This document shows, one piece after another, positions 18,617-49,219 of a DNA stretch of 64,000 nt. This DNA is from Minisyncoccota bacterium. Lineage in GTDB: Bacteria; Patescibacteriota; Microgenomatia; UBA1400; UBA12028. The notes under the pieces were generated by a model. The model worked only from the letters and a program-made list of their open reading frames with translations. It had not been told where the DNA came from and searched no databases. Numbering within the stretch: position 1 is the first letter of the stretch; the number at the start of each line of letters is the position of its first letter. The DNA is taken from contig JACRHV010000004.1 of assembly GCA_016211945.1 (NCBI GenBank), positions 263,472 through 327,471 on the forward strand. Direction: 5' to 3'. The position numbers and the translations under genes are program-made.

Positions 18617-18632
18617 GGTATAAGTATACTCG

Positions 18633-21075: not shown

Positions 21076-21143
21076 GCCAAACCTTTATTCTTCATTTTTT
21101 TTCTTTTCTTTAACAGTGTTGAGCATTTTCACAAGGAGGTACT

Positions 21144-26417: not shown

Positions 26418-27137
26418 ATGAGAGGAATTATTCTCGCAGGAGGAGCAGGAACACGATTGTCACCGCTCACGAAGGTGACGAGTAAGCAACTTCTCCCTAT
26501 TTACAATAAACCGATGATTTACTTCCCATTGGAGACGTTGCTCCAGGCGGGTATTCGCGAAATTTTAGTTATTGTTGCACCGGATCATGCTGGAGATTTT
26601 GTGAAACTCCTTGGGAGTGGGAAAGAGTTTGGATGCAAAATCAGCTATGAGGTCCAAGACAAGCCCAACGGACTTGCGGAAGCGTTCATCATCGCAGAAA
26701 ACTTTTTAGACAAGGAAAATGTTGCGCTTATACTCGGTGATAATTTGTTCGAGGATGATTTCATTGAGCCAGTTCGACGATTTAAATCAGGTGCGCTGGT
26801 TTTTGCTTCACGCGTGCCCGACCCAGAGCGTTTTGGCGTCGTTGAGTTTGATCAAAATAAAAAAGTCATTTCCATTATTGAAAAACCAAAAGAGCCGAAA
26901 TCGGACTATGCCGTTACTGGACTCTATGTCTACGACAACGCCGTTGTCCAAAAGGCAAAATCATTGCAACCATCGTCACGTGGTGAACTAGAGATCACTG
27001 ACCTAAATACTCTTTATTTGAGCGAAGGAACGTTAGAGGTTGCATTTGTTCAAGGAAAATGGCTTGATACAGGAACATTTGAGGCGCTGTACCAAGCAAC
27101 AGAGTTTGTTCGAACAAAAGAACTTCAAGAAAAGTAA
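26418..27137 (+). CDS. sugar-1-phosphate nucleotidyltransferase (short RmlA/GlmU-N-like)
   Basis: MRGIILAGGAGTRLSPLT G-rich loop and ALILGDNLF motif. 239 aa. AAGGGAG SD. Confidence 0.7.
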   Translation: MRGIILAGGAGTRLSPLTKVTSKQLLPIYNKPMIYFPLETLLQAGIREILVIVAPDHAGDFVKLLGSGKEFGCKISYEVQDKPNGLAEAFIIAENFLDKENVALILGDNLFEDDFIEPVRRFKSGALVFASRVPDPERFGVVEFDQNKKVISIIEKPKEPKSDYAVTGLYVYDNAVVQKAKSLQPSSRGELEITDLNTLYLSEGTLEVAFVQGKWLDTGTFEALYQATEFVRTKELQEK

Positions 27138-29471: not shown

Positions 29472-29840
29472 ATGGCTAAACGATCATCACAATCAGTTGC
29501 ACCGGAGTTAGAGCGTGAGTTATATGCGGCCTTTTTTCAAATGCTCGCTGATATGCGAAACGCGAAAGAGGTTGAGACCTTCTTGAAATATTTTCTTAGC
29601 GAATCTGAATTATCTATTTATACAAAACGATTTGCCGTCGCGGTTATGCTTGAACAGGGGAAGAGTTACGAATACATTCGGGATTCGTTGAAAGTATCGT
29701 CCGCAACAATCTCATCTATAGCGGAACACCTCCGCTCTGACGGTATTTCACTCGCACTTCATAAATTGAAAGTGGAACGATGGGCCGATGTAATGAGTGA
29801 TAAACTTATGCAAATGTTCGGTGGAAATCCAAAAAGATAA
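29472..29840 (+). CDS. TrpR-like YerC/YecD family DNA-binding protein
   Basis: ELSIYTKRFAVAVMLEQGKSYEYIRDSLKVSSATISSIA matches the YerC/YecD Trp-repressor-like helix-turn-helix. Confidence 0.55.
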   Translation: MAKRSSQSVAPELERELYAAFFQMLADMRNAKEVETFLKYFLSESELSIYTKRFAVAVMLEQGKSYEYIRDSLKVSSATISSIAEHLRSDGISLALHKLKVERWADVMSDKLMQMFGGNPKR

Positions 29841-29891
29841 AGGGTGATCGCTACCCTTTTTTTCTCAAGCAAATCAGATTACAATACACAT

Positions 29892-31320: not shown

Positions 31321-32109
31321 ATGATTATTGACACACATGTTCACTATAACCTTGAACCTCTTTTTCCTGACTGGAAAATACATTGGGAAGAAGCGCAAAA
31401 ACATGACATCAAAAAATCGGTGATTATTGGCACAGACGAAGAAACAAATGCACGTGCAATCGCGATCGCAGAGAGTCAAGAACACCTTTATGCCGCTCTC
31501 GGAATCCACCCCACTGAGCAATTTTCGGAATCAGAGTGTCTGTCTTCTTTCTCAAAATTAGAAAGGCAAATACGTCAATCAAAAAAAATTGTCGCGATTG
31601 GGGAGTGTGGACTCGATTTCTTTCGATTACCGGTGGACAAGAAACAAAAAGAGGAAGAGAAAAAGAGACAGTGTGAGCTTTTTCAAAAACACATAGAGCT
31701 CGCGCATCAACACAAGCTTCCCCTCGTCATTCATTGCAGAGATGCACACCAGGAGCTTATTGAAACACTTTCATCATTTGAAGTGCAGAAATTCGTTTTG
31801 CATTGCATGTCAGGAACTCTCGAATATCTTCAGCAGGCAATTGCACTAGGCGGGTATATCAGTTTTGCAGGAAATATTACATATAAAAATGGCGACCATC
31901 TTCGCGAACTTGTAAAGATAACGCCAAAAAATCGTTTACTTGTTGAAACCGATGCTCCGTATCTCCCTCCGTCGCAATGGAGAGGTCAAATAAATATTCC
32001 CAAATACATTACGGAAACCGTCAATACGCTTACTGCCATACTTGGCATCTCTGTTGATGAATGCAGAACAATCACAACACAAAATGCGGAGCACTTCTTT
32101 CACATATGA
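31321..32109 (+). CDS. tatD: TatD-family metal-dependent DNase/hydrolase
   Basis: MIIDTHVHYN N-terminus, GECGLDF, HCR/HCM histidine motifs. The stop overlaps the next ATG. Confidence 0.85.
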   Translation: MIIDTHVHYNLEPLFPDWKIHWEEAQKHDIKKSVIIGTDEETNARAIAIAESQEHLYAALGIHPTEQFSESECLSSFSKLERQIRQSKKIVAIGECGLDFFRLPVDKKQKEEEKKRQCELFQKHIELAHQHKLPLVIHCRDAHQELIETLSSFEVQKFVLHCMSGTLEYLQQAIALGGYISFAGNITYKNGDHLRELVKITPKNRLLVETDAPYLPPSQWRGQINIPKYITETVNTLTAILGISVDECRTITTQNAEHFFHI

Positions 32110-33596
32110 TAAAACGATGGGTTCGTCGACATCCGGTAAAAACACAACGATTCCTCGAGATACTTCCGGGGGCTAGTTCGTGGTTTCTCATTCTCTTCCC
32201 AGTATGGGGGTCTCTCATCATTCCAGAAATAGTGGCCTATTACATCATTGCGTTTGATGTGTACTGGCTTTATCGTTCGATTACTTTGGCCATTTTGTCT
32301 ATTGTTGCACACCTCAAGATTCAAGCCTCATCGCGATATGATTGGATGAAAGACGTAAAAAAAATATCGGATTGGGAAAAGGTTCACCACATCGTGATCA
32401 TTCCCACATATCGAGAGCCACTCTCAACATTAGAAAGAACGCTCGATACTTTGTCAAAACAAAGTTTTCCACTTTCAAGAATATCTATTATGCTTTCGTT
32501 TGAAGAACGCGAGGGAGATGAAGCAAAAGATAAAGCAAAAAAATTGCTCAACGCCTATGGAAAAACGTTTAAAAATCTCTGGACAACATTCCACCCAGAC
32601 ATAGAGGGAGAGGTAAAAGGAAAATCATCAAATACTGCATGGGGCGCAAAAATTGCGAAACAAAAACTTGTTGACGAACAACACGTTGATATGCAGTACA
32701 TCACAATCACAAGTGAGGACGCTGACGCGCTTTTTCACCCCGAATATTTTGGCGCACTGACCTATCATTTTTTACGCGCCGGACAGAAAAGATATCACAC
32801 TATTTGGCAACCAGCCATCATGTTTTATAACAACATATGGAAAGTGAGAGCCCCTGTGCGCGTTCTTGCTTCCGTCTTTTCTGTCAATCAAATGTTCATC
32901 CTCATGCGTCGAGATAGGCTTGTGAATTTTTCAACCTATTCAATTTCACTTCACCTTGTACATACCATTGGATATTGGGACACCAACGTCATTCCAGAAG
33001 ATTACCGCATGTTCTTCAAGGCATATTTCGCGATGAAAGGAAATCTCGAGGTCGCCCCACTCTTTATCCCTGTGTATGCAGACGCGGCAGAGTCCAATGG
33101 GTTCTGGTCGAGCATGCATAATCAGTACGAGCAAATTAAGCGGTGGGCTTGGGGAGTAAGTGACGATGCGTACATTATTAAACAGTGGATTCTCGCGGAA
33201 AACGTCCCGTTTTGGGATAAGACAATCCGTGTGATCAAGACGATCGAGGATCATTTCCTTTGGCCGGTGAACTGGTTTGCCATTACGTTAGGGGCAATGT
33301 TCCCACCATTATTGAACAAGGAATTTAACAGAACAATCCTTGGAAAAACATTGCCACAGGTTTCTTCTACCATTCTCACAATCTCACTTATCTCCCTTTT
33401 TATCATGTTTATCATTGATGCGCGATCGCGCCCACCTCGACCAAAAACATCACTACTCTCAAGAATACTCCAACCGCTTGAGTTTACGATGTTGCCGTTT
33501 ATAGGATTTTTCTTTTCCGCACTTCCTGGAATCGACGCACACACCAGACTCATGCTTGGGAAATATATTGAGTACAGGGTGACGGAAAAAGTGTAA
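32106..33596 (+). CDS. membrane-embedded family-2-like glycosyltransferase
   Basis: N-terminal TM helices, GT-A-like core (VIIPTYREPLSTLERTLDTLSKQ, ITSEDAD DxD-like), C-terminal TM bundle. Confidence 0.45.
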   Translation: MIKRWVRRHPVKTQRFLEILPGASSWFLILFPVWGSLIIPEIVAYYIIAFDVYWLYRSITLAILSIVAHLKIQASSRYDWMKDVKKISDWEKVHHIVIIPTYREPLSTLERTLDTLSKQSFPLSRISIMLSFEEREGDEAKDKAKKLLNAYGKTFKNLWTTFHPDIEGEVKGKSSNTAWGAKIAKQKLVDEQHVDMQYITITSEDADALFHPEYFGALTYHFLRAGQKRYHTIWQPAIMFYNNIWKVRAPVRVLASVFSVNQMFILMRRDRLVNFSTYSISLHLVHTIGYWDTNVIPEDYRMFFKAYFAMKGNLEVAPLFIPVYADAAESNGFWSSMHNQYEQIKRWAWGVSDDAYIIKQWILAENVPFWDKTIRVIKTIEDHFLWPVNWFAITLGAMFPPLLNKEFNRTILGKTLPQVSSTILTISLISLFIMFIIDARSRPPRPKTSLLSRILQPLEFTMLPFIGFFFSALPGIDAHTRLMLGKYIEYRVTEKV

Positions 33597-33605
33597 TATA
33601 CACGT

Positions 33606-35123
33606 ATGAGAAACATCGTTCATTTCATCCAAAAACACGAGGGAATCGTGTTCATCTTGATTGCAATGTTTCTCCTCCGAGTCCCCAATCTTTATGAACC
33701 ATACTGGTATGGTGATGAGGGTATCTATCTCACGCTCGGGACCGCACTTCGACACGGACTTATTCTCTATCGAGATATCATCGATCATAAGACACCGCTT
33801 ATTTATGTATTTGCGATGTTACCCTCGCAATTTTGGTTTAAGTTTTTCTTTATGGTATGGATGGCGGGAGCCACAACGCTTTTTTACGTTCTCGCCCAAC
33901 GCATATTCAAATCGAGGTGGAGGGCAATCGTAACATCCACCGTTTTTATGTTGCTTACAACATTGCCTGCGTTTGAGGGAAACATTGCGAATGGAGAGTT
34001 GTTCGTTGTGGGGTTTGTTCTCGCAGGTATGGTTATGTTCTCCAACTCATCACTTTTTATGGCATTTCTCCAAAAGAAAACGACCTATCATCATGAATAC
34101 GTTCTTATGATTTTCTCCGGCATATGTTTTTCGCTTGGCACACTTACAAAAGTACCTGCAGTATTTGACATTGCTGGGGTTGTGGCTATCTTCGGCTTTC
34201 TCATGTGTTACACATTTTCCTGGAAAAACATGAGAACATTGCTTCTTTCTGGTATCGCCCTTTGCATTGGTTTTGCCATCCCTATCTTGATAAGTGTTGC
34301 ATACTTTGCATTCCACCAAGCACTATCCGATTATGCGCAGTTCGGACTACTATATAACTTCCGCTACAGTACCTCGTTTCGCGTTCCTGTGTCGCAGGAC
34401 TGGCTCGCTTTTCTCTATACTATGCCTGGAAAGGCGCTCGTTGTTGCTTTTCTAGGTGGAACTACACTTCTTCTCAAGAAATACCTTCGTCCGGTTTTTC
34501 AATTCTCTTTTGCATGGTACGTCTTTACTCTTTTTTCATCGCTGCTTTCTTCTCGACCATATCCACACTATTTTCTTCAACTCTTCGCTCCATTCTCACT
34601 TCTTCTTGGATGCATATTGTACAAAGGCAGAGTAATAGAAAAAATTTTGTTTGGTATTGGTGTTTTTCTTTGCATATTCACCATGATTGTTCTCAACGCC
34701 GGACTATATCCAACACTTTCGTATTATCAAACATTTGGACAGTATGTAACCGGTTCTCTATCAAAAGATACATACCGGAATCAATTCAATCCATTGATGG
34801 CGGATACTTATCTTGTGGCACAGTACATTCAAACAACCACAACTTCCGATGATCGCATGTTTATTTGGGGAACAAACCCCATGCTGTATGCATTAGCCAA
34901 ACGAGTCCCGTCTGGAAGGTTCACCGTTTCATTTCACATTAAAGATTTTCAGGCGAATCCGGAAACTTTTGAGGCTATCCAAAAAACAAAGCCTCCCATT
35001 ATTGTTGTGATGAATGATGAAGACGGATCTTTTCCAGAATTTTATGCATATCTCCAACAGTATTACATTCCGGTACAGTCACACCTCACAATGAAGGTGT
35101 TTAGAAGAGTGATGCTTCCATGA
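33606..35123 (+). CDS. GT-C fold membrane glycosyltransferase (ArnT/PMT-like, GT39/GT83-type)
   Basis: First loop YEPYWYGDEGIYLTLGTALRHG carries the DE acidic motif typical of polyprenyl-phosphate-sugar-dependent GT-C enzymes. 11+ TM helices. Confidence 0.55.
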   Translation: MRNIVHFIQKHEGIVFILIAMFLLRVPNLYEPYWYGDEGIYLTLGTALRHGLILYRDIIDHKTPLIYVFAMLPSQFWFKFFFMVWMAGATTLFYVLAQRIFKSRWRAIVTSTVFMLLTTLPAFEGNIANGELFVVGFVLAGMVMFSNSSLFMAFLQKKTTYHHEYVLMIFSGICFSLGTLTKVPAVFDIAGVVAIFGFLMCYTFSWKNMRTLLLSGIALCIGFAIPILISVAYFAFHQALSDYAQFGLLYNFRYSTSFRVPVSQDWLAFLYTMPGKALVVAFLGGTTLLLKKYLRPVFQFSFAWYVFTLFSSLLSSRPYPHYFLQLFAPFSLLLGCILYKGRVIEKILFGIGVFLCIFTMIVLNAGLYPTLSYYQTFGQYVTGSLSKDTYRNQFNPLMADTYLVAQYIQTTTTSDDRMFIWGTNPMLYALAKRVPSGRFTVSFHIKDFQANPETFEAIQKTKPPIIVVMNDEDGSFPEFYAYLQQYYIPVQSHLTMKVFRRVMLP

Positions 35124-35446
35124 AATTAATACAAACTATTCATACAGTATCCTTCCTTCTCTGCATAACGTCACTTCTTGTTGCGGGATTGGGATTTTTT
35201 TTCTTTCTTCAGCCGGAAATTCCGCTGTGGTACTCACTGTATAGAGCAGAAGATCAAATGACTTCTAAAGCATTCATTTTCACTATACCTGCACTTATGT
35301 TTGGGATATACGGAACATCAAATATCTTCCGTACACTACTAAAAGATGATCATGAATCAGTCCGGCATCTCATCGCCTTTGGATCGTTCTGTTGTATTCT
35401 CATGTTCTTTATTACACTTATTCGCATCATGGTGATCGCGGGATAA
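35120..35446 (+). CDS. small polytopic membrane protein (108 aa), possibly GtrA-like
   Basis: 3-4 predicted TM helices. ATGA coupling to the upstream GT-C gene. Confidence 0.3.
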   Translation: MKLIQTIHTVSFLLCITSLLVAGLGFFFFLQPEIPLWYSLYRAEDQMTSKAFIFTIPALMFGIYGTSNIFRTLLKDDHESVRHLIAFGSFCCILMFFITLIRIMVIAG

Positions 35447-35448
35447 AT

Positions 35449-36534
35449 ATGAATAACGTCATTGTCCCTTTTATTACAAGTTTTGTTATAGCAGTTTGTA
35501 GTGCGCCACTTGTCATCAAGGCATACAAACACATGGGCTGGATCGATGATCCAAAAAAAAATGCACATCCTAAGGTTGTACATAAAAAAGCTATACCACG
35601 TGGTGGTGGTGCGGTTATTTTTATCGCTGTTCTATTTGCCAGTCTTTTTTTCCTTCGTTTTGATAAGCACGTGATTGGTATCTTGCTCTCCGCCTTCTGC
35701 ATTACGCTTCTTGGGGTTTTTGATGATGTGAAGGACCTTAGTCCATATCTGCGACTCCCTCTCCTTTTTCTTGCTGCCGCGGTTGTTGTTGGCTCAGGGG
35801 TGGGTATTGCCTATCTCAGCAATCCTTTTGGTAGTGGAGTGCTATGGCTGAATCAGCCACAACTTGTCTTTGATTTTCTCGGAAGAACGAGGCATCTCTG
35901 GATTCTCGCAGATATTTTTGGTCTCCTGTGGATTGTGTGGAACATGACTATTGTGAACTGGTCAAAAGGGTTGGATGGACAAATGCCTGGATTTGTGGGG
36001 ATCGCATCGTTTGTCATTGCGCTCCTCTCACTTCGATTTAGTGCCGATCCGGCGCAGTGGAACGTGACGCTACTCGCGCTTATTGTTTCCGGCGCTTTCT
36101 TTGGATTTTTGGTGTGGAATATCTATCCACAACGCATGATGGCAGGATACGGAGCCGGATCTTTGGCTGGATTTTTTCTTGCAGTGCTTTCTATTCTCTC
36201 TGGTGCAAAGGTTGCAACGGCACTGCTTGTCCTCGCAATTCCAACAATAGATGCATGTTATGTTATTCTCCGCCGCCTGTTTAAAGGAAAATCGCCGCTC
36301 TGGGGAGACCGAGGGCATCTTCATCACAGACTTATGGATATTGGGTGGGGGAAAAGAAGAATTGCATATTTCTACTGGATCACCACTGCCGTTCTCGGCT
36401 TCATCTCGCTCCAATTGAACAGTCAACAGAAGTTCTATACAATACTAGGTATCGCATTGCTCTTTGGAGGATTTCTCGTATGGATCACACTCTTTTTCTC
36501 ATCCTCAAAACAGCTCGTCCGAGACAATGGATAA
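35449..36534 (+). CDS. polyprenyl-phosphate sugar-1-phosphate transferase (WecA/TagO/MraY superfamily)
   Basis: HKKAIPRGGG matches the (V/I)PRxGG motif of WecA/TagO-type GPTs. 10-11 TM helices. Confidence 0.7.
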   Translation: MNNVIVPFITSFVIAVCSAPLVIKAYKHMGWIDDPKKNAHPKVVHKKAIPRGGGAVIFIAVLFASLFFLRFDKHVIGILLSAFCITLLGVFDDVKDLSPYLRLPLLFLAAAVVVGSGVGIAYLSNPFGSGVLWLNQPQLVFDFLGRTRHLWILADIFGLLWIVWNMTIVNWSKGLDGQMPGFVGIASFVIALLSLRFSADPAQWNVTLLALIVSGAFFGFLVWNIYPQRMMAGYGAGSLAGFFLAVLSILSGAKVATALLVLAIPTIDACYVILRRLFKGKSPLWGDRGHLHHRLMDIGWGKRRIAYFYWITTAVLGFISLQLNSQQKFYTILGIALLFGGFLVWITLFFSSSKQLVRDNG

Positions 36535-37406
36535 AAAATCTTTCTTTGTATGCGGCACTCATGTTTTCCGGGTTTTTGTTTTATCAGTTCCCCTCATATC
36601 TATTGAGTGTTACTCAAGCATTTGTTCTTTTTTCGATCCTGTCCTCGTGCGTTTACATCGTGAATGATGTTATTGATCTCCCACAGGATAAACTTCATCC
36701 ATTCAAAAAATACCGACCTATCGCTTCCGGAGCCTTGCCAATTCCCATTGCACTTTTCGCGGCTGTTGTTGGATTTCTTACTGTCTTTTTCTTTTCATTG
36801 ACATTCTCGCCATTTTTTCTTCTCCTCGCTATGATGTATGCCGCTCTCCATATTCTGTACTCGGTGAAATTGAAGCATGTACCTATCCTTGACGTTATTG
36901 CCATCGCTACGGGATTTGTGATCCGTGTGTATGCGGGAGCAGTTGTCGTAAATCTTCACATGAGTGTGTGGTTTTTGCTTACCGTTATTTCAGCCTCACT
37001 TTTCCTTGCAGTTGGAAAGCGACAAAGCGAACGAACACTCATGCAGGGAAAGGTTGAAACGAGGAAAATTCTCGAACATTACTCACAACGTCTTCTTGAT
37101 ATTTACACTGGTATGTTTGCGAATACGACATGGCTGACCTATGCACTGTACGCCTTCCAGCAAGACGACTTTATCCCACAGGGAACGATGTTGAAACTTT
37201 TCACAGCTCTTCCTCGAACGTTTATAACACAAAAGTGGATGATGATTACTGTTCCTGTTGTTATTTACGGAGTTATGAGATATCTCCAACTCGTGTATGA
37301 AAAAAATAATGGTGAGTCACCGGATAAAGTGTTATTAGAAGATAAGCCGCTCCTTGCTTCTGTGATGTTATGGGGAGTGATGGTGATTGCGATTTTATAT
37401 CTGTAA
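36480..37406 (+). CDS. UbiA-family prenyl-phosphate phosphoribosyltransferase (decaprenyl-phosphate phosphoribosyltransferase-like)
   Basis: ARPRQWIKN...NDVIDLPQDKLHPFKKYRPIASGALP resembles DPPR synthase (mycobacterial UbiA, Rv3806c-like). Start placed at the internal ATG (MDHTLF...). Overlaps the upstream gene end. Confidence 0.6.
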   Translation: MDHTLFLILKTARPRQWIKNLSLYAALMFSGFLFYQFPSYLLSVTQAFVLFSILSSCVYIVNDVIDLPQDKLHPFKKYRPIASGALPIPIALFAAVVGFLTVFFFSLTFSPFFLLLAMMYAALHILYSVKLKHVPILDVIAIATGFVIRVYAGAVVVNLHMSVWFLLTVISASLFLAVGKRQSERTLMQGKVETRKILEHYSQRLLDIYTGMFANTTWLTYALYAFQQDDFIPQGTMLKLFTALPRTFITQKWMMITVPVVIYGVMRYLQLVYEKNNGESPDKVLLEDKPLLASVMLWGVMVIAILYL

Positions 37407-37481
37407 TATTGCGATATGGCGCCACGTTTTCACTTTGTGATATAGTGATGTGCAATATCTTTTCCTTGCCCAAAGAGGAGG

Positions 37482-37739
37482 ATGTTGGTCACAGTCGGAG
37501 AGTGTGTGCGTGGAGTTGTTGTAAAAACGAACAAAACTGATGGGTACTTTGTCGTCTTAACAGCAGATTCTGCAATACTTCAAGTCTTATGTCTCCATCC
37601 CTTGTACTATCCAGGTGGCATATCTTTTTCATATGTCGACTCAAAACCTCAAGAACTTGCCATTTGTGATGTTGAATCTGTCTTTGGACTTCTCGAAAAA
37701 ATAGCCCCAGCGTTAGTCAAAAGCCTGTCTCATCCCTAA
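37482..37739 (+). CDS. hypothetical protein (85 aa, TTG start)
   Basis: GAGGAGGATG precedes the TTG. No family recognised. Confidence 0.25.
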   Translation: MLVTVGECVRGVVVKTNKTDGYFVVLTADSAILQVLCLHPLYYPGGISFSYVDSKPQELAICDVESVFGLLEKIAPALVKSLSHP

Positions 37740-37746
37740 ACGATTT

Positions 37747-38685
37747 TCACTCTTTGTGCACTACTGCATATTGTCCAGAAACCCATCCTTGTTTCCCTGT
37801 TTGATACTCGATTTTTAGCCATCCATTTGTCGCTTGATTAAGGTATGGAACGAGGGAGCCGACATCAAGCTTTGCAAGCTCCTCTGATGTACCATTGGCA
37901 TCCGCCCGAACACGCAACCACCCTGTACCCGTTTCCTTTACCTCAACATAGGGGAGTGGGGGTTTTGTTGTTGTCTTTATTGAACTTGAGCCACTTGCAG
38001 TAGGTGGGGCTATGGGTTTTTGCGTTGGCTTCACCGATGCTTTAGGACTCGGTGAGGGAGTAAGCGCGGGAGTAGGTTCTGGGGTTGCTTCTTCAACACC
38101 TTGTTTCATTACCTCACGCGCAAGTTTTGTAGTTACGGTAAGCCGGTATCCTTTTACTAGTTTTGGATTTGTTGTTCGCTCAATAAACCCAGGAGCAGTC
38201 ATGGTAAGACTGTGTGATCCTTCTACAAGATCATCAAGAACGAGCGGACTAAATCCTTTTGACTGTCCATCAACCTTGACAATGATGTTGTCCGGATTCG
38301 TGACGATGGAAAGTTCACTCTTGTTTCGATTTGACCCTTTTGACAGCTCAAAAATCTCTCCTCCACTTTCCTCAAGTGTTTTTCCAAATGTCCAGTTCAC
38401 AACAGAAATATTTCCTCCTGTTAAGGATACTGTTGTTTCGTATGATGCCTTTGAGGTGTCTTCGGGCACAAGTTTGATCGTTCTCGATCCGGGCTTGAGA
38501 TCCTCTGACTTCAACGGTGTTTGACCCACACTAATGCCATCAACAAAAACGCTTGCTTTTTCTCCAGTCGAGGTGCTAACCTGCAAACCAGCTTTTTTAG
38601 TGGCAAATCCCGGAAAGGTACATCCGGAGAGTAAAACTGCGGCTAACACAAGAACAATGACTTTTTTCATCATGCGACTCATCAT
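37747..38685 (-). CDS. lipoprotein with PEGA-like repeats and a C-terminal SH3b-like domain
   Basis: Lipobox LLSGC; repeated V.VDG..G.TPL segments; P/T/S linker; C-terminal GWLRVRADANGTSEELAKLDVGSLV...GWVSGQYAV. Confidence 0.5.
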   Translation of the reverse strand: MMSRMMKKVIVLVLAAVLLSGCTFPGFATKKAGLQVSTSTGEKASVFVDGISVGQTPLKSEDLKPGSRTIKLVPEDTSKASYETTVSLTGGNISVVNWTFGKTLEESGGEIFELSKGSNRNKSELSIVTNPDNIIVKVDGQSKGFSPLVLDDLVEGSHSLTMTAPGFIERTTNPKLVKGYRLTVTTKLAREVMKQGVEEATPEPTPALTPSPSPKASVKPTQKPIAPPTASGSSSIKTTTKPPLPYVEVKETGTGWLRVRADANGTSEELAKLDVGSLVPYLNQATNGWLKIEYQTGKQGWVSGQYAVVHKE

Positions 38686-38753
38686 ACTATTCGATCACTC
38701 GATTGACAACGCTTCGTTTTTCCCCAAGAACTTGGTACAATAGCCTCGCCTGT

Positions 38754-38828
38754 AAGGCATCGTGGCGCCGTACCAGAGCGGTCTAATGGCGAGGTCTGCA
38801 AAACCTTCGATCCGCCGGTTCAAATCCG
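38754..38828 (+). tRNA. tRNA-Cys (anticodon GCA)
   Basis: 75-nt cloverleaf. Acceptor GGCGCCG/CGGCGCC, anticodon stem GAGGU/ACCUU with loop CUGCAAA, T-arm GCCGG-UUCAAAU-CCGGC, discriminator U73 as expected for tRNA-Cys. Confidence 0.8.
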
Positions 38829-38840
38829 GCCGGCGCCTCA

Positions 38841-40169
38841 ATGAAAAGAGATCATAACACTTCCGAAACTCTGAAAATTGAGTCTGGAGGCCCCTTAAAA
38901 CGAATTTTGCGAAGAGATTTTTTAGCAACTCCCTTTTCATTTCTTCGCGCCACCTCAGCAGAAAAAATGTTAAGCGAGAAAAAAGATCTTGCCTTCATCA
39001 CTGCACTAGAGCTTTACAAAATTCCAAAAAGGCAATTTCTTGCGCTTGCCACTTTAATTTCGGGCGTATTAGGTATGGGTGCTGTGGGAGTTGATCAATT
39101 GGTGTTTGATGGTGCTTTCCAAGACCTTATGCTACAGGCACTTGCTAAACCCGAGTTAAGAGAAAAATTACTAGAAATTGTCGTTGAAGGAAAAGCTCCA
39201 CAAAAATTGCGCGAGGAATTCTATGAAAAAATGACTCCTTATATCCCTGATTATAAGTTGGGAGGGAAAGAAAATCTTGATGAACCAAATTTGGATAAAG
39301 GTTTCTCTTCTTACGAAATTAGGCATGTCGTAAGTGCTGGTAAGGAAAATCCTCAACTCTTACTCATCGCCACGTTAAAGAAAAACGGAGCTGTTGTTGT
39401 AACAGAAAAAACAGAGGATGATCGCTTAAATCTTACAGAAACTCAAAATAAATTTGGGCCATTCTTCGCCATTCCAAGTTCACAACTTTCAAAAAAAGAG
39501 GGTGTAATAGAAATTTCCACATACTCATCCTACATGACAGAGTCCGGAAAATTAATAACATATGGTATGGAGAACAAAAAAATAAGTAGTGGTGCATTAG
39601 TCTTACTTAATGATGGAGAGATTCTTGTTATAGATAAAAGTGAGATTGATCAATATGTCACTGGGAAAAATTGTAAAGCAATTCAAACATTTGTTCTAGC
39701 TATTCAAAGCACAACACTTAGTCATGATATGGCAAGTATTGATTCCGCAATGTTTAGAAGAACCAGTGTGAGTGGCATAGCGGCTGTCCCGTATGAATGT
39801 TTTGTCGCGACATTTTACAAATCAGGTGGAATAAAAGAAACAAAAATAATTTCTGTCTATGAACCACTCATCTCCTCCCCTTCTTCAAACTCGTCTTCGA
39901 CCAATCGTCTGTGGTATGTAGGAATATCGATTGAACAATGTGTGAGTGTATGCAAACAACTTCAAGATGAAGGAGGATTTGATCGATTTACATTTATCGT
40001 CCCAGATCCACATTATATCCACTCAAAGTTAATAGGTCCTTTCGAAGATTCTGAGAAAAAATCACTTCGTGTTTTTGGAAAGGATATGCCAGGTACATAT
40101 ATTGAAAAAGAAAATCGTGGACTTAAGTATTATCCACCAGTATTTTTAGCATTGAAATTGAAGCCTTGA
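38841..40169 (+). CDS. hypothetical protein (up to 442 aa); AT-rich
   Basis: Track ORF begins 10 nt after tRNA-Cys; the start may be the Met at about 38967. No recognisable domain. Visibly lower GC than its neighbours. Confidence 0.35.
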   Translation: MKRDHNTSETLKIESGGPLKRILRRDFLATPFSFLRATSAEKMLSEKKDLAFITALELYKIPKRQFLALATLISGVLGMGAVGVDQLVFDGAFQDLMLQALAKPELREKLLEIVVEGKAPQKLREEFYEKMTPYIPDYKLGGKENLDEPNLDKGFSSYEIRHVVSAGKENPQLLLIATLKKNGAVVVTEKTEDDRLNLTETQNKFGPFFAIPSSQLSKKEGVIEISTYSSYMTESGKLITYGMENKKISSGALVLLNDGEILVIDKSEIDQYVTGKNCKAIQTFVLAIQSTTLSHDMASIDSAMFRRTSVSGIAAVPYECFVATFYKSGGIKETKIISVYEPLISSPSSNSSSTNRLWYVGISIEQCVSVCKQLQDEGGFDRFTFIVPDPHYIHSKLIGPFEDSEKKSLRVFGKDMPGTYIEKENRGLKYYPPVFLALKLKP

Positions 40170-40170
40170 C

Positions 40171-41202
40171 CTACTTTATCGCTTGCTCCACCAACCTATT
40201 ACAATATCCCCACTCATTGTCATACCAAGCGACTACCTTGACCATGTCGCCATCAACAACCTGCGTAAGTGCTAGATCAACAATAGACGATTCGCTCCGT
40301 CCAATAATGTCAGAAGAAACAATAGGATCATGGGTAATCGCTAAAATCCCCTTCCATTTTGCCTGCTGTGATGCCTGCTCCAAAATCTGTTTTACCTCCT
40401 CAACCGAGGTCTTCTTCTCCACAATAAACACTATCTCAGCAATTGAGCCTGTAGATGTTGGAACACGATATGAAATCCCGTCAAACAACCCTTTCAATTC
40501 TGGGATTGTTTCTGCCACAGATTGAGCTGCGCCGGTCGTGGTGGGAACAATATTTTTTGCAGCACTTCGGGCACGGCGAAGATCTTTATGCGAGTTGTCC
40601 TGCAAATTCTGATCATCGGTATAACTGTGAATCGTGCACATCATCGCTTTTTTGACGTGGAGTGCGCCGTGGATAACCGCAGTTACGGGTGCTACACAGT
40701 TCGTTGTGCATGAAGCATTCGACTCAACACCCGCGCCAACCGCCTCATTGACCCCAACCACAAACGTTCCAATCCCATCGCCTTTCGGTGGGGCAGAGAT
40801 GACTACGCGTTTTGCACCCGCAGTCAAATGAGCGGATGTCTTTTCCTTCGTGGTAAACACGCCGGTGGACTCAATGACGGTATCAATTCCTAATCGCAAC
40901 CATGGCAATTTGGACGGATCCTTCTGTGCAAAAACCGCGATTCTTTTACTCCCAATCAAGAGATATCCCAACAAAGGGTCTTGATCAGAAATTTGGTCTT
41001 TTCTCTGATACATTTCAACGGCAATATTGGTCGTCCACACTCCATAGTTGCTGTCGTACTTGAGGAGATATGCCCATCCATCTAGGTCCATTGATCCGGA
41101 AGTATTCACCGCCAAAAGATCGGCTTTGTCTTGATGTTTATCAAACCACACGCGGAAGGAGGTTCGGCCAATTCGACCAAAACCATTAATGGCAAGCTTC
41201 AT
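40171..41202 (-). CDS. gap: glyceraldehyde-3-phosphate dehydrogenase
   Basis: NGFGRIGR NAD-binding motif; SCTTNC active site; WYDNEWGY C-terminus. Confidence 0.9.
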   Translation of the reverse strand: MKLAINGFGRIGRTSFRVWFDKHQDKADLLAVNTSGSMDLDGWAYLLKYDSNYGVWTTNIAVEMYQRKDQISDQDPLLGYLLIGSKRIAVFAQKDPSKLPWLRLGIDTVIESTGVFTTKEKTSAHLTAGAKRVVISAPPKGDGIGTFVVGVNEAVGAGVESNASCTTNCVAPVTAVIHGALHVKKAMMCTIHSYTDDQNLQDNSHKDLRRARSAAKNIVPTTTGAAQSVAETIPELKGLFDGISYRVPTSTGSIAEIVFIVEKKTSVEEVKQILEQASQQAKWKGILAITHDPIVSSDIIGRSESSIVDLALTQVVDGDMVKVVAWYDNEWGYCNRLVEQAIK

Positions 41203-41353
41203 AGAAAACAGTATAGCGCAAAAAATTAGAGAATGAACACACTATGGAACAAGTACGCCATTATCTCGCAATTCTTTGGCAAGGTCTGCCTCAATGATTG
41301 AGTCATCTTTGTAAATAAGTGCAACATTCAATTTTTATTGCTTTAATTCCTGT

Positions 41354-41734
41354 CTAAACAGCTGCCGAAAGTAAGCCTAAACCAGCAAGCTCTTGCAATA
41401 TAGATCGCTGAATTGTACGCATATCTTTTTTAACTAGTTGTAAAGCATACTCAGATACTTCTGCTTTAAATGATGGATCTGTACTGCCCGATACAACTGT
41501 TAAAAATATTCTTGGTACTGATTCCTTTGCTTTATTTGCGAGTGTTCTCAGCTCCTCCTGTGCAATATCAATAAAAACAGCGTATATTGCTGACCCCATA
41601 GACACCTCTGCCTCTTGAAGAGAGGCTGCTTCAACAACATCCAAACCTTGAGATTTACAAATTCCTGCAACAATTGATCTCCATTGTGGATCAGCATCCG
41701 CCACAAGTATTTTCCGTCCTTCTCCGTTAGTCAT
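41354..41734 (-). CDS. stand-alone receiver-domain (CheY-like) response regulator
   Basis: KILVADADPQ..., AVFIDIAQ (phospho-acceptor Asp), TVVSGS, LVKK. Start ATG at 41732-41734 preceded by GGAAAGGAGAAGT. Overlaps the pgk stop by 8 nt. Confidence 0.6.
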   Translation of the reverse strand: MTNGEGRKILVADADPQWRSIVAGICKSQGLDVVEAASLQEAEVSMGSAIYAVFIDIAQEELRTLANKAKESVPRIFLTVVSGSTDPSFKAEVSEYALQLVKKDMRTIQRSILQELAGLGLLSAAV

Positions 41735-42725
41735 ACTTCTCCTTTCCTTGTACCGCCTCAATTCCCGGTAACGTTCCATATGCAACATAATCCAACATCG
41801 CTCCACCACCAGATGAAATAAATGATATTCCTTTTCGCACTTTCAATATTGAAAGTGCCGCTTCCGTGTCGCCACCACCAACCACCGTGTATCCCTTTGT
41901 TCCAGCAAGTAAATTTCCTATTGCACGCGTTCCGGATCGGGAAGCTGCATCCTCGAACTTACCCATAGGACCGTTCCACATAATGGTCTGACCCATTGAG
42001 ATAAATCGGGCGAATTGTTCTACAGTTAACTTAGAAATATCTTTTCCGTCCTTCGTTAACACTCCGACAATCAATTTTCTATTCTCAATGGGATGCTTTA
42101 TTAACTCAACAGCCAACTTTCCACCAACTAAGATGACATCGGCCTTATCCTGCAGTGCCTTAATAATCGGCAATTTTGTTTCGATTTTTGCACCACCAAG
42201 TATCGCAATAAATGGGCGTTTTTGATTCGTAATTAATGGTGCCAACCCTTTCAGTTCCTTCTCGAACTGCAGACCAAAATACGTGGGAAGAATCTGCGGA
42301 ATAAAGGTAATTGAGGTGTGTTTCCTATGTGAAGAGGCGAATGCGTCGTTCACATACATGTCGTGCCCTTTCGCTAATTCCTTTGCGTAGGGAAGTGAGC
42401 CGGACTCTTCTCGTTTATCATATCGAAGATTTTCTAACACACGGAACTCAATTGTTTTTGGAATCTTCACTGTTTTCAGTAATAACTTTTCAACTGGCTT
42501 TAAAGATAGCTTGGAAACTTTTTTTCCTTCTGGGCGCCCACGGTGACCGATCACGGTAATCTTTTTCGCGTCATGATCAATGAGGTACTGAAGTGTTTGT
42601 GCGCCATCGGAAAGGCGTGTTGTATCAAACTTTCCTTTTTCCAACGGGAGATCGAGGTCTAAGCGGACCAAGACGGACTTTCCACGAATATCCACACTAT
42701 GAAGAAAATGGCCCATGGCGGGCAT
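41727..42725 (-). CDS. pgk: phosphoglycerate kinase
   Basis: N-terminal KSVLVRLDLDLPL, hinge and C-terminal GGGDTEAAL region. Short (332 aa) but full-fold. Confidence 0.85.
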   Translation of the reverse strand: MPAMGHFLHSVDIRGKSVLVRLDLDLPLEKGKFDTTRLSDGAQTLQYLIDHDAKKITVIGHRGRPEGKKVSKLSLKPVEKLLLKTVKIPKTIEFRVLENLRYDKREESGSLPYAKELAKGHDMYVNDAFASSHRKHTSITFIPQILPTYFGLQFEKELKGLAPLITNQKRPFIAILGGAKIETKLPIIKALQDKADVILVGGKLAVELIKHPIENRKLIVGVLTKDGKDISKLTVEQFARFISMGQTIMWNGPMGKFEDAASRSGTRAIGNLLAGTKGYTVVGGGDTEAALSILKVRKGISFISSGGGAMLDYVAYGTLPGIEAVQGKEKYD

Positions 42726-42729
42726 TATA

Positions 42730-43767
42730 TCATGTCTTGAGGAATTTTGCCCTGAATCTCAAGAGTTTCCACCGCAATTCCTCGAGGAAACGGTAAATCT
42801 TGTAGTATTGTGGCATAACGAGAAGGTCGTAGGTTCCCATAAACTCGGTTAAAACCCCTCCGTAGCCCTCCTTAAACTTGTGAAAACCGTACCATGGATT
42901 GGTTGGATCAGCATCTGGGCCCAAAGATCCCCACATGTCAAAACTCGTACACCCTTGCTGTTTCCCAAACTGGATGACCTTCCACATCATCATGTTGCTC
43001 GCCATAACCTCACGATTTTCGTTTGAACTTGCGCCGTAGGGATAATAGAGGACATTGTTATGCACAAATACAATCCATGCCACTAACGTTTTCCCCTCAA
43101 GAACTGCGCGAAAAATATGTATCATGCCCGTAGGTTTGAGTGTTTGCCACATGGTGCGAAAATATTCGGGTCCATGTGCGTAAAATTGCTGGCGATTGGT
43201 GGTTTCATGAAGGATGCGAAGATACTCTTCTATTGCCTCATCTGAGTCGTCTTGGACCACCTGCACTCCCCGGCGTTCCGCCAAATGAAGGTTGTATCGT
43301 GTTTTCGGTTTCATATGTTCGAGCAATACTTCTTCTGTGGGCTTCAGATCGAGAACAAAGGTATACTTGGTAAATAAGGGGCGACCAGGAACCGCTCCAT
43401 TCTGTTGAAGAAAGTTTTGGAGTGTTTCATGTGCTTGCGGCTTATCTACGGCCGAGGCGACATTTGGCTCAAGTTTAATAAATAGCGCATTTTTGCGTCG
43501 CCCAAGATCAAATAACGCGTGAAGTTGTTCCTCATCCGGCATCTGTCCTTTTGGAAAATATCCAACAGTGTACGGCGTATGCGGAATAGGATGAAAGGTA
43601 ACCTGCATTCCACCAACCATCATTTGGCCATCAAAAAGGCCAAATCGCTCAACCTCAACACCAGTTTTTCTGCGAAAATCGCCCCATTCCCACGTTTGAA
43701 GTGGATGTTTTACTACGTTGTTATACGCAGTTTTTTCCTTGATATCTAATGGGCGGATGATGATCAT
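42730..43767 (-). CDS. FemAB-family aminoacyl-tRNA-dependent peptidyltransferase-like protein
   Basis: 345 aa. N-terminal HPLQTWEWGDFRRKTG and a FemAB-like twin GNAT-fold pattern. Confidence 0.55.
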   Translation of the reverse strand: MIIIRPLDIKEKTAYNNVVKHPLQTWEWGDFRRKTGVEVERFGLFDGQMMVGGMQVTFHPIPHTPYTVGYFPKGQMPDEEQLHALFDLGRRKNALFIKLEPNVASAVDKPQAHETLQNFLQQNGAVPGRPLFTKYTFVLDLKPTEEVLLEHMKPKTRYNLHLAERRGVQVVQDDSDEAIEEYLRILHETTNRQQFYAHGPEYFRTMWQTLKPTGMIHIFRAVLEGKTLVAWIVFVHNNVLYYPYGASSNENREVMASNMMMWKVIQFGKQQGCTSFDMWGSLGPDADPTNPWYGFHKFKEGYGGVLTEFMGTYDLLVMPQYYKIYRFLEELRWKLLRFRAKFLKT

Positions 43768-43821
43768 GCGGACATGATAACACGCCTAATTAGACTTGTC
43801 GCGGAATAAGAAATGAGTCTA

Positions 43822-45726
43822 CTAGCCGAGCAACGCGTCGACATCAATCTCACCAGTGAGGAACTGTTCGAATGCCTCGTCATTGGGGATAAAGGTTCGG
43901 CCTTTTGGTGTTGGGGTAGGATGTGAAAGAAACGCGCCGCCACGCTTGTCTAACACATGTGATGGAATCTCTGCAATAAATCTGCTCACAATGGATCCCG
44001 TAATGTTTCCATAGAGTAATCGTTTCCGCGTGTAGGTCAGAAATAATTTCTCTTTTGCCCGCGTAATCCCAACGTAACAGAGCCGCCGCTCCTCCTCGAG
44101 TTGATGTTTGTCTAAAAGCGAACGACTGTGGGGGAATAGGCCTTCCTCCATTCCAATCATGAACACAACACCAAACTCTAGTCCTTTTGCCGCATGCATA
44201 CTCATGAGCGTCACCGCGGATTGGTTTGGGTTTTTCGCATTCGCTTTTTCCGAGGCCGCATCGTTTTCTACCAATGCCACCTGTTCCAAAAATTCTGTGA
44301 GTGTAGAAAACTCACTGGCAACAGACCGTAGCTCTTGAATGTTCTCTAAGCGCGACTGATCTTCCTCGATTTTTTCATCATAGAGATCTTTGTACTGCGA
44401 AACCTCGATTACTTTATCTAAAATGTCGAGCGGTGCCGTGGGAAGATGTTTTTCTGTGTTGAGCCAACGGATATACGCATCGAACTTTCTCTTTCCTAAT
44501 TTTTCTAGCCGTCCCACCGCAATTTCGTCTTTGTGATTTGAAAACACGCGGAGATAGGCGAGGACATCCTTAATTTCTTTGCGTGCATAAAAGCGAACAC
44601 CACCAACCAATCGATATGGAATCCCACTACGAATGCAAATGTCTTCAATCACACGGCTTTGCGCGTTTGTTCTGTACAACACCGCAATTTCGGAAAGATT
44701 GTGTGTGCGCATCGCCTCCTGGATATTCTGCGCCACAAACAGCGTTTCTTCTTGATCGCTTTCCGCCTCAAACAGCACGATTTTTTCTTCTGACTGCCGC
44801 TCTGTCCACAACGTAAGAACAGGGTGAGTGGTGTTGTTTAAGATCACCCCCGTTGCGGCATCCAAAATATTCTGAGAGGATCGATAGTTTCTTTCCAGTT
44901 TGTATTCTGCAATTGCGGGGAAATCTTTTTTCAAGAGGAGCATATTGCGATAATCCGCACCGCGAAATGCATAGATGCTCTGGCTAAAGTCCCCAACAAC
45001 CATGAGATGATTTTCTGGTTCTGCAAGCATCTTGCTTAAGAGATACTGCGCCTTGTTGACATCTTGATACTCGTCCACTAATACGTGATCGAACTGATTT
45101 TGATATTTCTCCAACACCTTACGGTATTTTTGGAACAACTCCACTGTTTTGTTGAGCAGATTGTCAAAGTCCACTGCGTGTTGCTCGGTCAATTTCTTCT
45201 CATAGATTTGGTAAACCTTTGCGGTCAATTCCTGATATTTTCCTCGAGCAACATCCCAATACTCGCTTGGCGTAATCATCTCTGTTTTTGCATTTGAGAT
45301 CATGCTCAACACGATGCGAGGATTTGCTTCTTTTGGCGGAATTTTGAGTTGTTTTAAAATCGCTTTTATGAGATCAAGTTGATCATCACCATCAAAAATA
45401 AGAAAGTTTGACGGAATACCGATCCAATGTCCATCCGCCCTGAGAATCTTTGCGCAGAGTTTGTGAAAGGTTCCGGAAAATTGGAGTGTGTGACCAGTCA
45501 TTTTACGCACACGTTCCGTCATTTCATGTGCCGCTTTATTTGTAAAGGTTACCAGTAAAATTGCTGAGGGGGAGATGTGCTTCTCAGCCGTGAGGTATGC
45601 CACGCGTGTGGTAAGTACGCGCGTTTTGCCAGATCCAGCACCAGCCAATACCATGGCTGGACCATCGCCATGCAAAACAGCGGCTTTTTGCTCATCGTTG
45701 AGGCCGAGAAGGAGATCGGAGAACAT
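43822..45726 (-). CDS. pcrA: ATP-dependent DNA helicase, UvrD/PcrA family
   Basis: Walker A AGAGSGKTRVLT, DEYQD, helicase motifs through VI (VGITRAKEKLFLTY). Confidence 0.85.
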   Translation of the reverse strand: MFSDLLLGLNDEQKAAVLHGDGPAMVLAGAGSGKTRVLTTRVAYLTAEKHISPSAILLVTFTNKAAHEMTERVRKMTGHTLQFSGTFHKLCAKILRADGHWIGIPSNFLIFDGDDQLDLIKAILKQLKIPPKEANPRIVLSMISNAKTEMITPSEYWDVARGKYQELTAKVYQIYEKKLTEQHAVDFDNLLNKTVELFQKYRKVLEKYQNQFDHVLVDEYQDVNKAQYLLSKMLAEPENHLMVVGDFSQSIYAFRGADYRNMLLLKKDFPAIAEYKLERNYRSSQNILDAATGVILNNTTHPVLTLWTERQSEEKIVLFEAESDQEETLFVAQNIQEAMRTHNLSEIAVLYRTNAQSRVIEDICIRSGIPYRLVGGVRFYARKEIKDVLAYLRVFSNHKDEIAVGRLEKLGKRKFDAYIRWLNTEKHLPTAPLDILDKVIEVSQYKDLYDEKIEEDQSRLENIQELRSVASEFSTLTEFLEQVALVENDAASEKANAKNPNQSAVTLMSMHAAKGLEFGVVFMIGMEEGLFPHSRSLLDKHQLEEERRLCYVGITRAKEKLFLTYTRKRLLYGNITGSIVSRFIAEIPSHVLDKRGGAFLSHPTPTPKGRTFIPNDEAFEQFLTGEIDVDALLG

Positions 45727-45750
45727 CGCGCTTCATGCTATCATACTTTC

Positions 45751-46449
45751 ATGCAAAACACTGTATTAGACACACAAAAGTTTGTTCTCGCGAATTGGAA
45801 ATCGCACAAAACATTAGAGGAGGCGGTTGGGTGGCTCGCGGAGGTTGGGCCACTCGGGACAAACTCTCCATATGAGGTTATTGTTTGTCCGCCGTTTCCG
45901 TTTTTGTATCCACTTTCTCAAGAAATTCGGGCAAAAAAATATCGTATTTCATTGGGCATACAGGATGTAAGTCCCTTTCCTGCCGGAGCATATACGGGTG
46001 CGGTGTGCGTACGGAATCTCAAAGGCCTTGGGGTAAAGTATGCGCTTGTGGGGCACAGTGAACGCAGAAATTATTTTCATGAAACTGTGCAGGAAATTGC
46101 AAATAAAGTGACACAACTTATTGAGGAAAATATCACACCAATTGTCTGTATTGATCGAGAACATACTATTGCACAGGCCAATGCATTGGAAGGGGGAGAA
46201 AGAAAACGCTGTCTGGTTTTGTATGAAACGGTTGGGCATATTGGAACAGGAGAGGTAGAGGACCTGCCAAGTGTTTTACGATCAGTGGATGAAATTCATC
46301 ACGCGTTTGGATTTCCTATCCCAGTGATCTATGGTGGCAGTGTAAGTGATACATCGCGCGATTTTTTTATGAAACATGAAAAACTCGCTGGGGTTGTCGT
46401 GGGAACAAAGAGTCTAGACCCAAAAGAATTCGCAAAAATTATTCAATGA
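45751..46449 (+). CDS. tpiA: triosephosphate isomerase
   Basis: ANWKSHKT (NWK), GHSERR, IVCIDRE..., GGSV. Start at the internal ATG at 45751. Confidence 0.85.
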   Translation: MQNTVLDTQKFVLANWKSHKTLEEAVGWLAEVGPLGTNSPYEVIVCPPFPFLYPLSQEIRAKKYRISLGIQDVSPFPAGAYTGAVCVRNLKGLGVKYALVGHSERRNYFHETVQEIANKVTQLIEENITPIVCIDREHTIAQANALEGGERKRCLVLYETVGHIGTGEVEDLPSVLRSVDEIHHAFGFPIPVIYGGSVSDTSRDFFMKHEKLAGVVVGTKSLDPKEFAKIIQ

Positions 46450-47542: not shown

Positions 47543-47546
47543 ATGT

Positions 47547-49217: not shown

Positions 49218-49219
49218 AC

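Follow-up and report, generated by a model that had tools for sequence, protein, structure and literature searches.

The decaprenyl-phosphoryl-arabinose (DPA) pathway, by which mycobacteria make arabinan, comprises the UbiA-type protein Rv3806c, Rv3807c, the DprE1/DprE2 pair, Rv3789, AftA-D and EmbA-C, while WecA primes arabinogalactan. More generally, glycosyltransferases (GTs) of the GT-C fold use polyprenyl-phosphate-linked donors outside the membrane. We describe here a cluster of five genes, g1 to g5, whose last member is related to Rv3806c and which occupies positions 32106-37406 (+ strand) of a 64-kb window, i.e. the whole stretch of DNA that was analysed (64,000 nucleotides of contig JACRHV010000004.1), from a Minisyncoccota bacterium of the Candidate Phyla Radiation (CPR, or Patescibacteria). 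In the reading that we favour, and that we hold to be rather probable from the sequences, g1-g5 would be a conserved envelope glycan assembly operon of Microgenomates-type Patescibacteria, organised around a lipid-linked pentofuranose donor.

The closest systems with a demonstrated biochemistry are those of Citrobacter youngae, in which Kelly et al. (2024) showed that ribofuranose or xylofuranose side chains are added by three-component pentofuranose systems (PMC11127046). In C. youngae O1/O2 the components are ORF15 (PPPRS-PRP: a polyprenyl-phosphate 5-phosphoribosyltransferase, or PPPRS, of UbiA type with a fused HAD phosphatase), the MATE flippase ORF14 and the GT-C enzyme ORF12 of family GT136, with D31, E34, H106, R349 and Y350 as conserved residues; the final sugar is set by an epimerase (PMC11127046). 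The scheme is related to mycobacterial DPA synthesis and to pilin arabinosylation in Pseudomonas, a Pseudomonas aeruginosa orthologue being proposed to supply the glycosylation of pilin with D-arabinofuranose (D-Araf); in this three-component framework the loci without epimerase lead to ribofuranose (Ribf) and those with DprE1/E2-like genes to Araf (PMC11127046).

Genes of the same type are also widespread. A tblastn search with g5 retrieved genes of 30-37% identity, mostly annotated as decaprenyl-phosphate 5-phosphoribosyltransferase (DPPRS), on plasmids of Lactococcus, Bacteroidota, a cyanobacterium, haloarchaea, actinomycetes and rhizobia. Plasmid pF27D of Lactococcus cremoris carries, inside a Wzx/Wzy polysaccharide cluster, the genes of a 462-aa hypothetical membrane protein, a DPPRS, a HAD-IB phosphatase and a GtrA protein, in this order. 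In a Flammeovirgaceae locus the DPPRS gene is followed by those of a FAD oxidoreductase and of a short-chain dehydrogenase/reductase (SDR); a Rhizobium locus reads HAD-UbiA, GtrA, FAD oxidoreductase, SDR, membrane protein. A preliminary description of the window had presented such a pathway as not described outside Actinobacteria: this is incorrect, because of the Citrobacter biochemistry (PMC11127046) and of the DPPRS-like genes present in many other phyla. As for the CPR, our literature search found no paper tying CPR, Patescibacteria or Microgenomates to DPPRS, decaprenyl, UbiA or a cluster of this kind.

Family membership of g5

The g5 gene (36480-37406, +) encodes a protein of 308 aa without extra domain, named "decaprenyl-phosphate phosphoribosyltransferase" by the NCBI annotation pipeline (PGAP). 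It passes the cut-off of the NCBIfam DPPRS equivalog NF008978 (213.6 bits for a cut-off of 207) and stays just under that of NF008977 (218 bits for 234); the third DPPRS model of NCBIfam gives 157 bits, and the family of HAD-UbiA fusions 143 bits. Among PDB entries, Rv3806c (8j8j) is matched with E=1.1e-40 and 36% identity over 225 residues.

The residues of Rv3806c contacting Mg2+, pyrophosphate and phosphoribose were defined in a structural study, which reports that other members of the UbiA superfamily do not keep the phosphoribose contacts (PMC10994848). We compared eleven of these substrate residues: N73, D77, R22, K87, R90 and K143 for Mg/pyrophosphate, and K28, Y70, Q135, Y138 and Y157 for phosphoribose. 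Nine of them (R22, K28, Y70, N73, D77, K87, R90, Y138 and K143) are shared by g5 and do not vary among 81 CPR sequences. As to the two others, Y157 is replaced by F in g5, a substitution also reported in mycobacteria, and Q135 by H in g5 of the window, Q being found in 62 of the 81 CPR sequences.

One may ask whether g5 is just an ordinary aromatic or quinone prenyltransferase, of the UbiA/MenA type, which stands in a glycan context by coincidence. The generic Pfam UbiA model does match g5, and homologues of g5 are called "4-hydroxybenzoate polyprenyltransferase" in some JGI records. However, the specific models of other prenyltransferases (UbiA, MenA, GGGP, chlorophyll synthase) give at most 41 bits on g5, far from the 214-218 bits of the two best DPPRS models and from the 157-218 bits spanned by the three; besides, g5 keeps the phosphoribose-binding residues that other UbiA enzymes do not conserve (PMC10994848). 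Because of these hidden Markov model scores and of these substrate residues g5 is ruled out as a quinone or aromatic prenyltransferase: it does not side with the MenA/UbiA quinone enzymes, and this alternative, to which we grant next to no probability, is effectively refuted already at the level of sequence. The kinship with decaprenyl-phosphate 5-phosphoribosyltransferase noticed in the preliminary description is thus upheld, both by the NF008978 score and by the Rv3806c residues. By family membership and conserved substrate residues g5 is predicted with assurance as an enzyme of the DPPRS/PPPRS family, and it would make polyprenyl-P-ribose-5-P from phosphoribosyl pyrophosphate (PRPP) and polyprenyl-P.

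Organisation and conservation of the cluster

An ORF check of the window confirmed the five open reading frames, all on the + strand, and the starts that we chose give for g1 to g5 exactly the proteins that PGAP annotates in a Candidatus Pacebacteria metagenome-assembled genome (MAG; locus tags HZA34_024xx), so that the five-gene cluster delineated beforehand stands as such. The genes of MetRS and TatD lie directly 5' of g1, the start of TatD being very probably at 31321. All junctions are tight: -4 nt for tatD/g1, +9 for g1/g2, -4 for g2/g3, +2 for g3/g4 and -55 nt for g4/g5. The start-stop overlaps of g2/g3 and g4/g5 suggest a translational coupling. The scan for promoters and terminators gave no informative signal of operon boundary in the window, with the sole exception of a hairpin upstream of MetRS (29839-29859). 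The G+C content of the window is about 42% and housekeeping genes are scattered over it, which, with the two genes of the FemAB family, agrees with a Patescibacteria/CPR origin.

The species representatives of GTDB were scanned with CPR-type peptide patterns of g5; at least 591 loci were confirmed, of which the 80 best were analysed. These 80 all belong to Patescibacteria by name or content (Pacebacteria, Woesebacteria, Chisholmbacteria, Cerribacteria, Microgenomates), and the order g1-g2-g3-g4-g5 recurs among them. The adjacency of g4 and g5 is found in 80/80 loci, g2 in 72, and a small ORF homologous to g3 between g2 and g4 in 75-76; g1 is present in 63, and where it is absent the contig often stops too close to g5 to include it. 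MetRS-TatD is upstream in about 48 of the 80 loci, and an AddA-like gene on the opposite strand is found in 28. Identity across the related loci amounts to 60-72% for g1 (over its 63 loci) and 56-83% for g5, against 36-58% for MetRS in the same loci. That g1 and g5 are more conserved than an aminoacyl-tRNA synthetase speaks for a strong constraint on them.

Two side observations were made on these loci. Many MAG records with the CPR synteny (L001, L003, L006 and others) are titled "uncultured Pseudomonadales bacterium", and the record of one g5 homologue, located on a 1.4-Mb contig, is titled Vitreimonas sp.; on such CPR-like records these titles look like taxonomic mislabels. In 16 of the 80 loci a sugar-1-phosphate nucleotidylyltransferase gene (NTP_transferase) directly follows g5, e.g. 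L055:10977-11873; a related gene exists in the window at 26418-27137, and might supply a nucleotide sugar for g1 or g4.

The conservation of order has to be weighed with care. The syntenic block also holds MetRS and TatD, so that shared order alone does not prove a single pathway. The whole block could be nothing else than a kept gene order, in which g5 and the GT-C enzymes would form a donor/transferase pair, while g1, as an independent exopolysaccharide synthase, and g4, as primer enzyme of another wall polymer, would belong to separate envelope processes. Reduced CPR genomes keep ancestral synteny, which would be reason enough for g1, g4 and g5 to travel together, and the functionally unrelated members of the conserved block also include a Trp-repressor-like gene and RmuC. 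Moreover, synthase-type GT2 enzymes such as BcsA or the hyaluronan synthases (HAS) normally need neither a lipid-linked primer nor a GT-C partner. On the other hand, all five genes encode membrane proteins of glycan assembly, the overlaps of g2/g3 and g4/g5 hint at coupled translation, and g4 and g5 are never separated in the 80 loci. We therefore see this explanation as possible but unlikely, and retain a joint operon as the reading pursued below.

Glycosyltransferases: g1, g2 and a PMT-type partner

PDB searches with the sequences and profiles of g1 and g2 gave no meaningful match, so that their folds had to be assessed on AlphaFold2 (AF2) models. For g1 (32106-33596, +, 496 aa; "glycosyltransferase family 2 protein" for PGAP) the model has a pLDDT of 85, and its best Foldseek matches are hyaluronan synthases and the cellulose synthase BcsA (E=4e-9 to 5e-6). 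The signature D165, D205xD207, E298-D299 and Q343xxR346W347 is invariant in 28-36 orthologues. On the Pfam GT2 models g1 of the window gives only E=0.006, which does not reach the cut-off; PF13632 appears in the precomputed matches of many orthologues. The membrane GT2-like enzyme announced by the preliminary description is thus recovered through the fold and the D, DxD, ED, QxxRW motifs: by both, g1 is modelled as a processive, membrane-embedded GT2 of the hyaluronan/cellulose synthase kind. The likeness to Class I hyaluronan synthases and BcsA lies in this predicted fold and in the complete signature; at the opposite, g1 is only 10-14% identical to them, lacks a PilZ domain and has no BcsB-like partner.

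g2 (33606-35123, +, 505 aa; "hypothetical protein" for PGAP) has an invariant D37-E38 pair, located in the first extracytoplasmic loop, and its C-terminal part is a soluble domain. Its assignment as a GT-C enzyme is supported by high-confidence structure models, which together with the invariant pair corroborate the earlier proposal of a GT-C protein with a DE motif. We looked for a kinship between g2 and the GT-C-like proteins encoded next to DPPRS in Lactococcus, Rhizobium and Flammeovirgaceae, and found no similarity; the Flammeovirgaceae neighbour is in fact not a membrane GT, having only weak PD40 and OmpA matches.

A second candidate lies further downstream. The gene at 49220-50485 (+; start codon uncertain) encodes a PMT-type GT-C glycosyltransferase (Pfam PMT, E=9e-29, plus PMT_4TMC and PMT_2). 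Its orthologue stands directly downstream of g5 in 35-39 of the 80 related loci and is followed there by the gene of an AddA-like helicase-nuclease, which is its neighbour in the window as well. In the window and in L001, the closest relative, the distance from g5 to the PMT-type gene is about 11.8 kb, the PMT-type and AddA-like genes being still adjacent. The block (37407-49219) that separates g5 from the PMT-type gene reflects a lineage-specific rearrangement of these two genomes, and 49220-50485 is a probable displaced member of the g1-g5 system. A GT-C enzyme is thus found within the cluster itself, and a PMT-type one beside g5 in nearly half of the loci.

Both g2 and this partner are PMT-like, with a DE motif of the PMT type, which raises the question of their acceptor. 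The GT-C enzymes might put ribofuranose on proteins (pilins, S-layer, lipoproteins), in the way of TfpW or of the O-mannosylation by actinobacterial PMT; for TfpW, itself a GT-C protein, it has been proposed that a donor derived from DPPRS serves to glycosylate the pilin of P. aeruginosa (PMC11127046). However, no gene for a pilin or another obvious acceptor is conserved in the block, and the presence of a polysaccharide synthase and of a PNPT-like protein (see below) in the cluster points rather to a glycan. Protein glycosylation is, for us, fairly improbable.

The atypical g4 and the small protein g3

g4 (35449-36534, +, 361 aa) belongs to the MraY/WecA superfamily of polyprenyl-phosphate N-acetylhexosamine-1-phosphate transferases (PNPT), and PGAP names it [quoted passage not shown]. 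It matches Pfam Glycos_transf_4 (PF00953) with E=5e-19, and its family profile matches the structures of MraY and DPAGT1. The PNPT motifs DD, HxHH and (K/R)xxHxxxxPRxGG are all found, and D92-D93 (the DD motif), D176 (second Asp of DGxDG), H290xH292H293 and P50-R51-G52-G53-G54 are invariant. The scores with the NCBIfam equivalogs are nevertheless far under the cut-offs: 70 bits for WecA (cut-off 326) and 47 bits for MraY (cut-off 192). Furthermore, the metal site is altered. D265 of MraY has an Mg-binding and catalytic role (PMC5039524); the position of this Asp (Aa-D265/Bs-D231) is occupied by Y, F or W in 28/28 g4 orthologues, and residues 230-241 of g4, which align to the (F/M)GD motif, contain no acidic residue. 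The equivalent of Bs-D174 (first Asp of DGxDG) is K in 24 and T in 4 of these 28 orthologues.

Since the canonical catalytic Asp is missing, a priming role of g4 is doubtful. Of the WecA/TagO-type transferase initially proposed, the membership of the PNPT superfamily holds, but not the identity with an ordinary WecA or TagO; g4 was likewise rejected as a bona fide MraY. The g4 orthologues may constitute, judging from their alignment, a PNPT subfamily in which the metal site was replaced or the substrate changed.

g3 (35120-35446, +, 108 aa; "hypothetical protein" for PGAP) encodes a small membrane protein in which hydropathy shows three hydrophobic segments; the motif QPxIPLFYSLxxPxQQLxxK comes after the first. 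It is distantly DUF1648-like: PF07853 is matched by 4 of 38 orthologues, with E=2.7e-4 at best. It had first been seen as a protein with four transmembrane segments, possibly GtrA-like, and neither trait persists. With E values up to 1 allowed, none of the 38 orthologues matches the GtrA domain of Pfam, the hhalign probability with the GtrA-family protein of Lactococcus is 0.4%, and the number of segments is three rather than four: g3 is ruled out as a GtrA protein.

Proposed pathway

The following pathway may be drawn. On the cytoplasmic face, g5 would move ribose-5-phosphate from PRPP to polyprenyl phosphate, yielding polyprenyl-P-ribofuranose-5-P. The 5-phosphate might then be removed and the lipid flipped outward, as precedent has it, by proteins that are not identifiable in the window, g3 being the sole conserved candidate for an accessory role. 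Outside the membrane, g2 would add ribofuranose from polyprenyl-P-Ribf to an acceptor, donor and acceptor both being presumed, and the PMT-type GT-C associated with g5 would probably do likewise. As acceptor, an envelope glycan of the same operon is the likeliest candidate: it could be the polymer extruded by g1, a glycan primed by g4, or both. By analogy, the logic of a UbiA-type synthase working with a GT-C enzyme, demonstrated biochemically in Citrobacter (PMC11127046), backs this reading.

The nature of the sugar depends on the epimerase. Among the ORFs of the window that reach 150 aa and lie clear of any called gene, none was seen to encode a DprE1- or DprE2-like protein. Our searches for accessory functions covered the 64-kb window and the 10-kb flanks of the 80 related loci: the window contains no FAD_binding_4 or SDR protein, and no FAD oxidase/SDR family is conserved within the flanks. 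The absence of DprE1/DprE2-like genes remarked in the preliminary description therefore extends to the related loci. Because no epimerase is nearby, we predict that ribose is kept and not turned into arabinose or xylose, and ribofuranose is, by analogy with the described systems, the simplest prediction. Together, the family and residues of g5, the operon-like array with a GT-C gene and the lack of epimerase give good inferential support to the polyprenyl-phospho-ribose donor for GT-C enzymes that had been suggested from the outset, and we infer that the donor is polyprenyl-P-ribofuranose.

It could be objected that DprE1/E2-like or ORF13-like enzymes encoded elsewhere convert the donor to arabinofuranose or xylofuranose, leading to an arabinan- or xylan-like decoration. 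Our view is limited to 64 kb of this genome and to 10-kb flanks in its relatives, and in mycobacteria, too, WecA and part of the pathway genes lie apart. Yet the epimerase genes of the comparator loci lie directly beside the synthase, and around g5 no such gene is conserved in the 80 CPR loci, which makes this possibility markedly improbable.

Several further observations weigh against the proposed operon. Neither a 5'-phosphatase (HAD-PRP or PAP2) nor a flippase of the GtrA, SMR or MATE type turned up in the window or as a conserved neighbour within 10 kb across the 80 loci, whereas in the comparator systems both functions adjoin the synthase. The profile of g2 shows no similarity to those of the putative GT-C proteins encoded beside the Lactococcus and Rhizobium DPPRS genes, which served as proxies for GT136 of Citrobacter. 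To these are added the loss of the catalytic Asp in g4 and the non-glycan genes of the syntenic block, both presented above.

The comparison with each known system shows a common core and different surroundings. With the Citrobacter three-component systems, the CPR block shares a UbiA-type synthase with NDxxDxxxD and KR..E motifs beside a GT-C enzyme, and the lack of epimerase predicts ribofuranose in that framework. By contrast, the block has neither a HAD-type phosphatase domain or gene nor a MATE or GtrA flippase; it adds a HAS/BcsA-like synthase, an atypical PNPT and a DUF1648-like protein, and it sits at a conserved site of the core genome, by metG-tatD, and not in a variable O-antigen locus.

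With the mycobacterial DPA pathway, the likeness resides in g5, 36% identical to Rv3806c with the substrate residues kept, and in the association of more than one GT-C enzyme; the presence of a WecA-like PNPT in the CPR set echoes the logic of arabinogalactan, a primer plus a lipid donor. The differences are that DprE1/DprE2, a PAP2 phosphatase and a homologue of the GtrA-type Rv3789 are missing from the window, that the CPR PNPT lacks the metal-binding Asp, and that the enzyme of the main chain is a membrane synthase instead of a soluble GT2 of the GlfT type. To our knowledge, neither a mycolate nor an arabinogalactan wall is known in CPR cells.

The Lactococcus plasmid pF27D resembles the CPR block by its monoderm host, by a DPPRS 34% identical to g5 and by the absence of an adjoining epimerase, which predicts a ribofuranose donor. 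It carries however the phosphatase and the GtrA protein that the CPR block lacks, and is plasmid-borne, strain-variable and Wzx/Wzy-dependent rather than synthase-associated.

A bolder version of the proposed operon can be imagined, which we find quite unlikely as a whole. The cluster would direct a lineage-defining and probably essential wall glycopolymer, built by an arabinogalactan-like logic from ribofuranose, or even from ribose-5-phosphate given that no phosphatase is encoded; a PNPT with a remodelled, possibly metal-independent site would be translationally coupled to g5, at least two GT-C enzymes would polymerise or attach the sugar on the outside of the cell, and the DUF1648-like protein would act as a flippase substitute or as a GT-C subunit.

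Neighbouring genes in the window

The block lying between g5 and the PMT-type gene encodes a PEGA/SH3 lipoprotein, tRNA-Cys, a 442-aa protein, GAPDH, phosphoglycerate kinase (PGK), a FemAB protein, UvrD, TIM, a GT28-like protein and a 556-aa membrane protein. The preliminary description had placed a GT28 gene and two further GT-C/PMT genes in this region. The first (46439-47542, -) is indeed GT28-like, on the basis of a match to the MGDG_synth N-domain (E=1.4e-10). Of the two others, the PMT-type gene discussed above was verified as a GT-C, but not 47547-49217 (-), whose 556-aa product finds no GT-C support from Pfam, PDB or hhalign. This gene adjoins the GT28/MGDG-synthase-like one and is divergent from the PMT-type gene; its product crosses the membrane several times and ends in a soluble domain, and Pfam, PDB and profile searches gave no match for it, the resemblance of its C-terminal domain to that of g2 being weak and non-significant.

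The PGK gene (41727-42725, -) has a product of just 332 aa, whose best Pfam alignment spans positions 2-222 of the 379 of the profile. A 151-aa ORF overlapping its end (41354-41809) is not a PGK fragment; the short PGK may have been truncated or frameshifted, or may diverge at its C-terminus. Two genes of the FemAB family, which acts on the interpeptide bridge of peptidoglycan, are present at 17702-18646 (-) and 42730-43767 (-), and suggest a Gram-positive-like branched peptidoglycan in the source organism. Lastly, a glmS ribozyme (RF00234, 56.9 bits; 20894-21080, +) lies directly upstream of glmS (21144-22910).

Conclusion

The enzyme families met here and their general logic are known, and already annotated automatically. 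A pathway of this kind exists in other bacteria; its proposed CPR version, typical of Microgenomates-type bacteria, located in the core genome, associated with a synthase and a PNPT, and with no phosphatase, flippase or epimerase nearby, is undescribed. What sets the CPR block apart from the described systems is precisely the missing phosphatase and flippase, the altered site of g4, and g3. The g4 orthologues point to an unstudied subfamily of PNPT without the canonical Mg-binding Asp.

The envelope chemistry of CPR/Patescibacteria is essentially uncharted, these organisms being mostly uncultured, and the strong conservation of the cluster gives an experimental handle on it. The analysis predicts a surface glycan containing ribofuranose, derived from PRPP through a polyprenyl-phosphate donor. 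The three-component paradigm of pentofuranose transfer would thereby be extended to a deep bacterial lineage, minus the known phosphatase and flippase modules.

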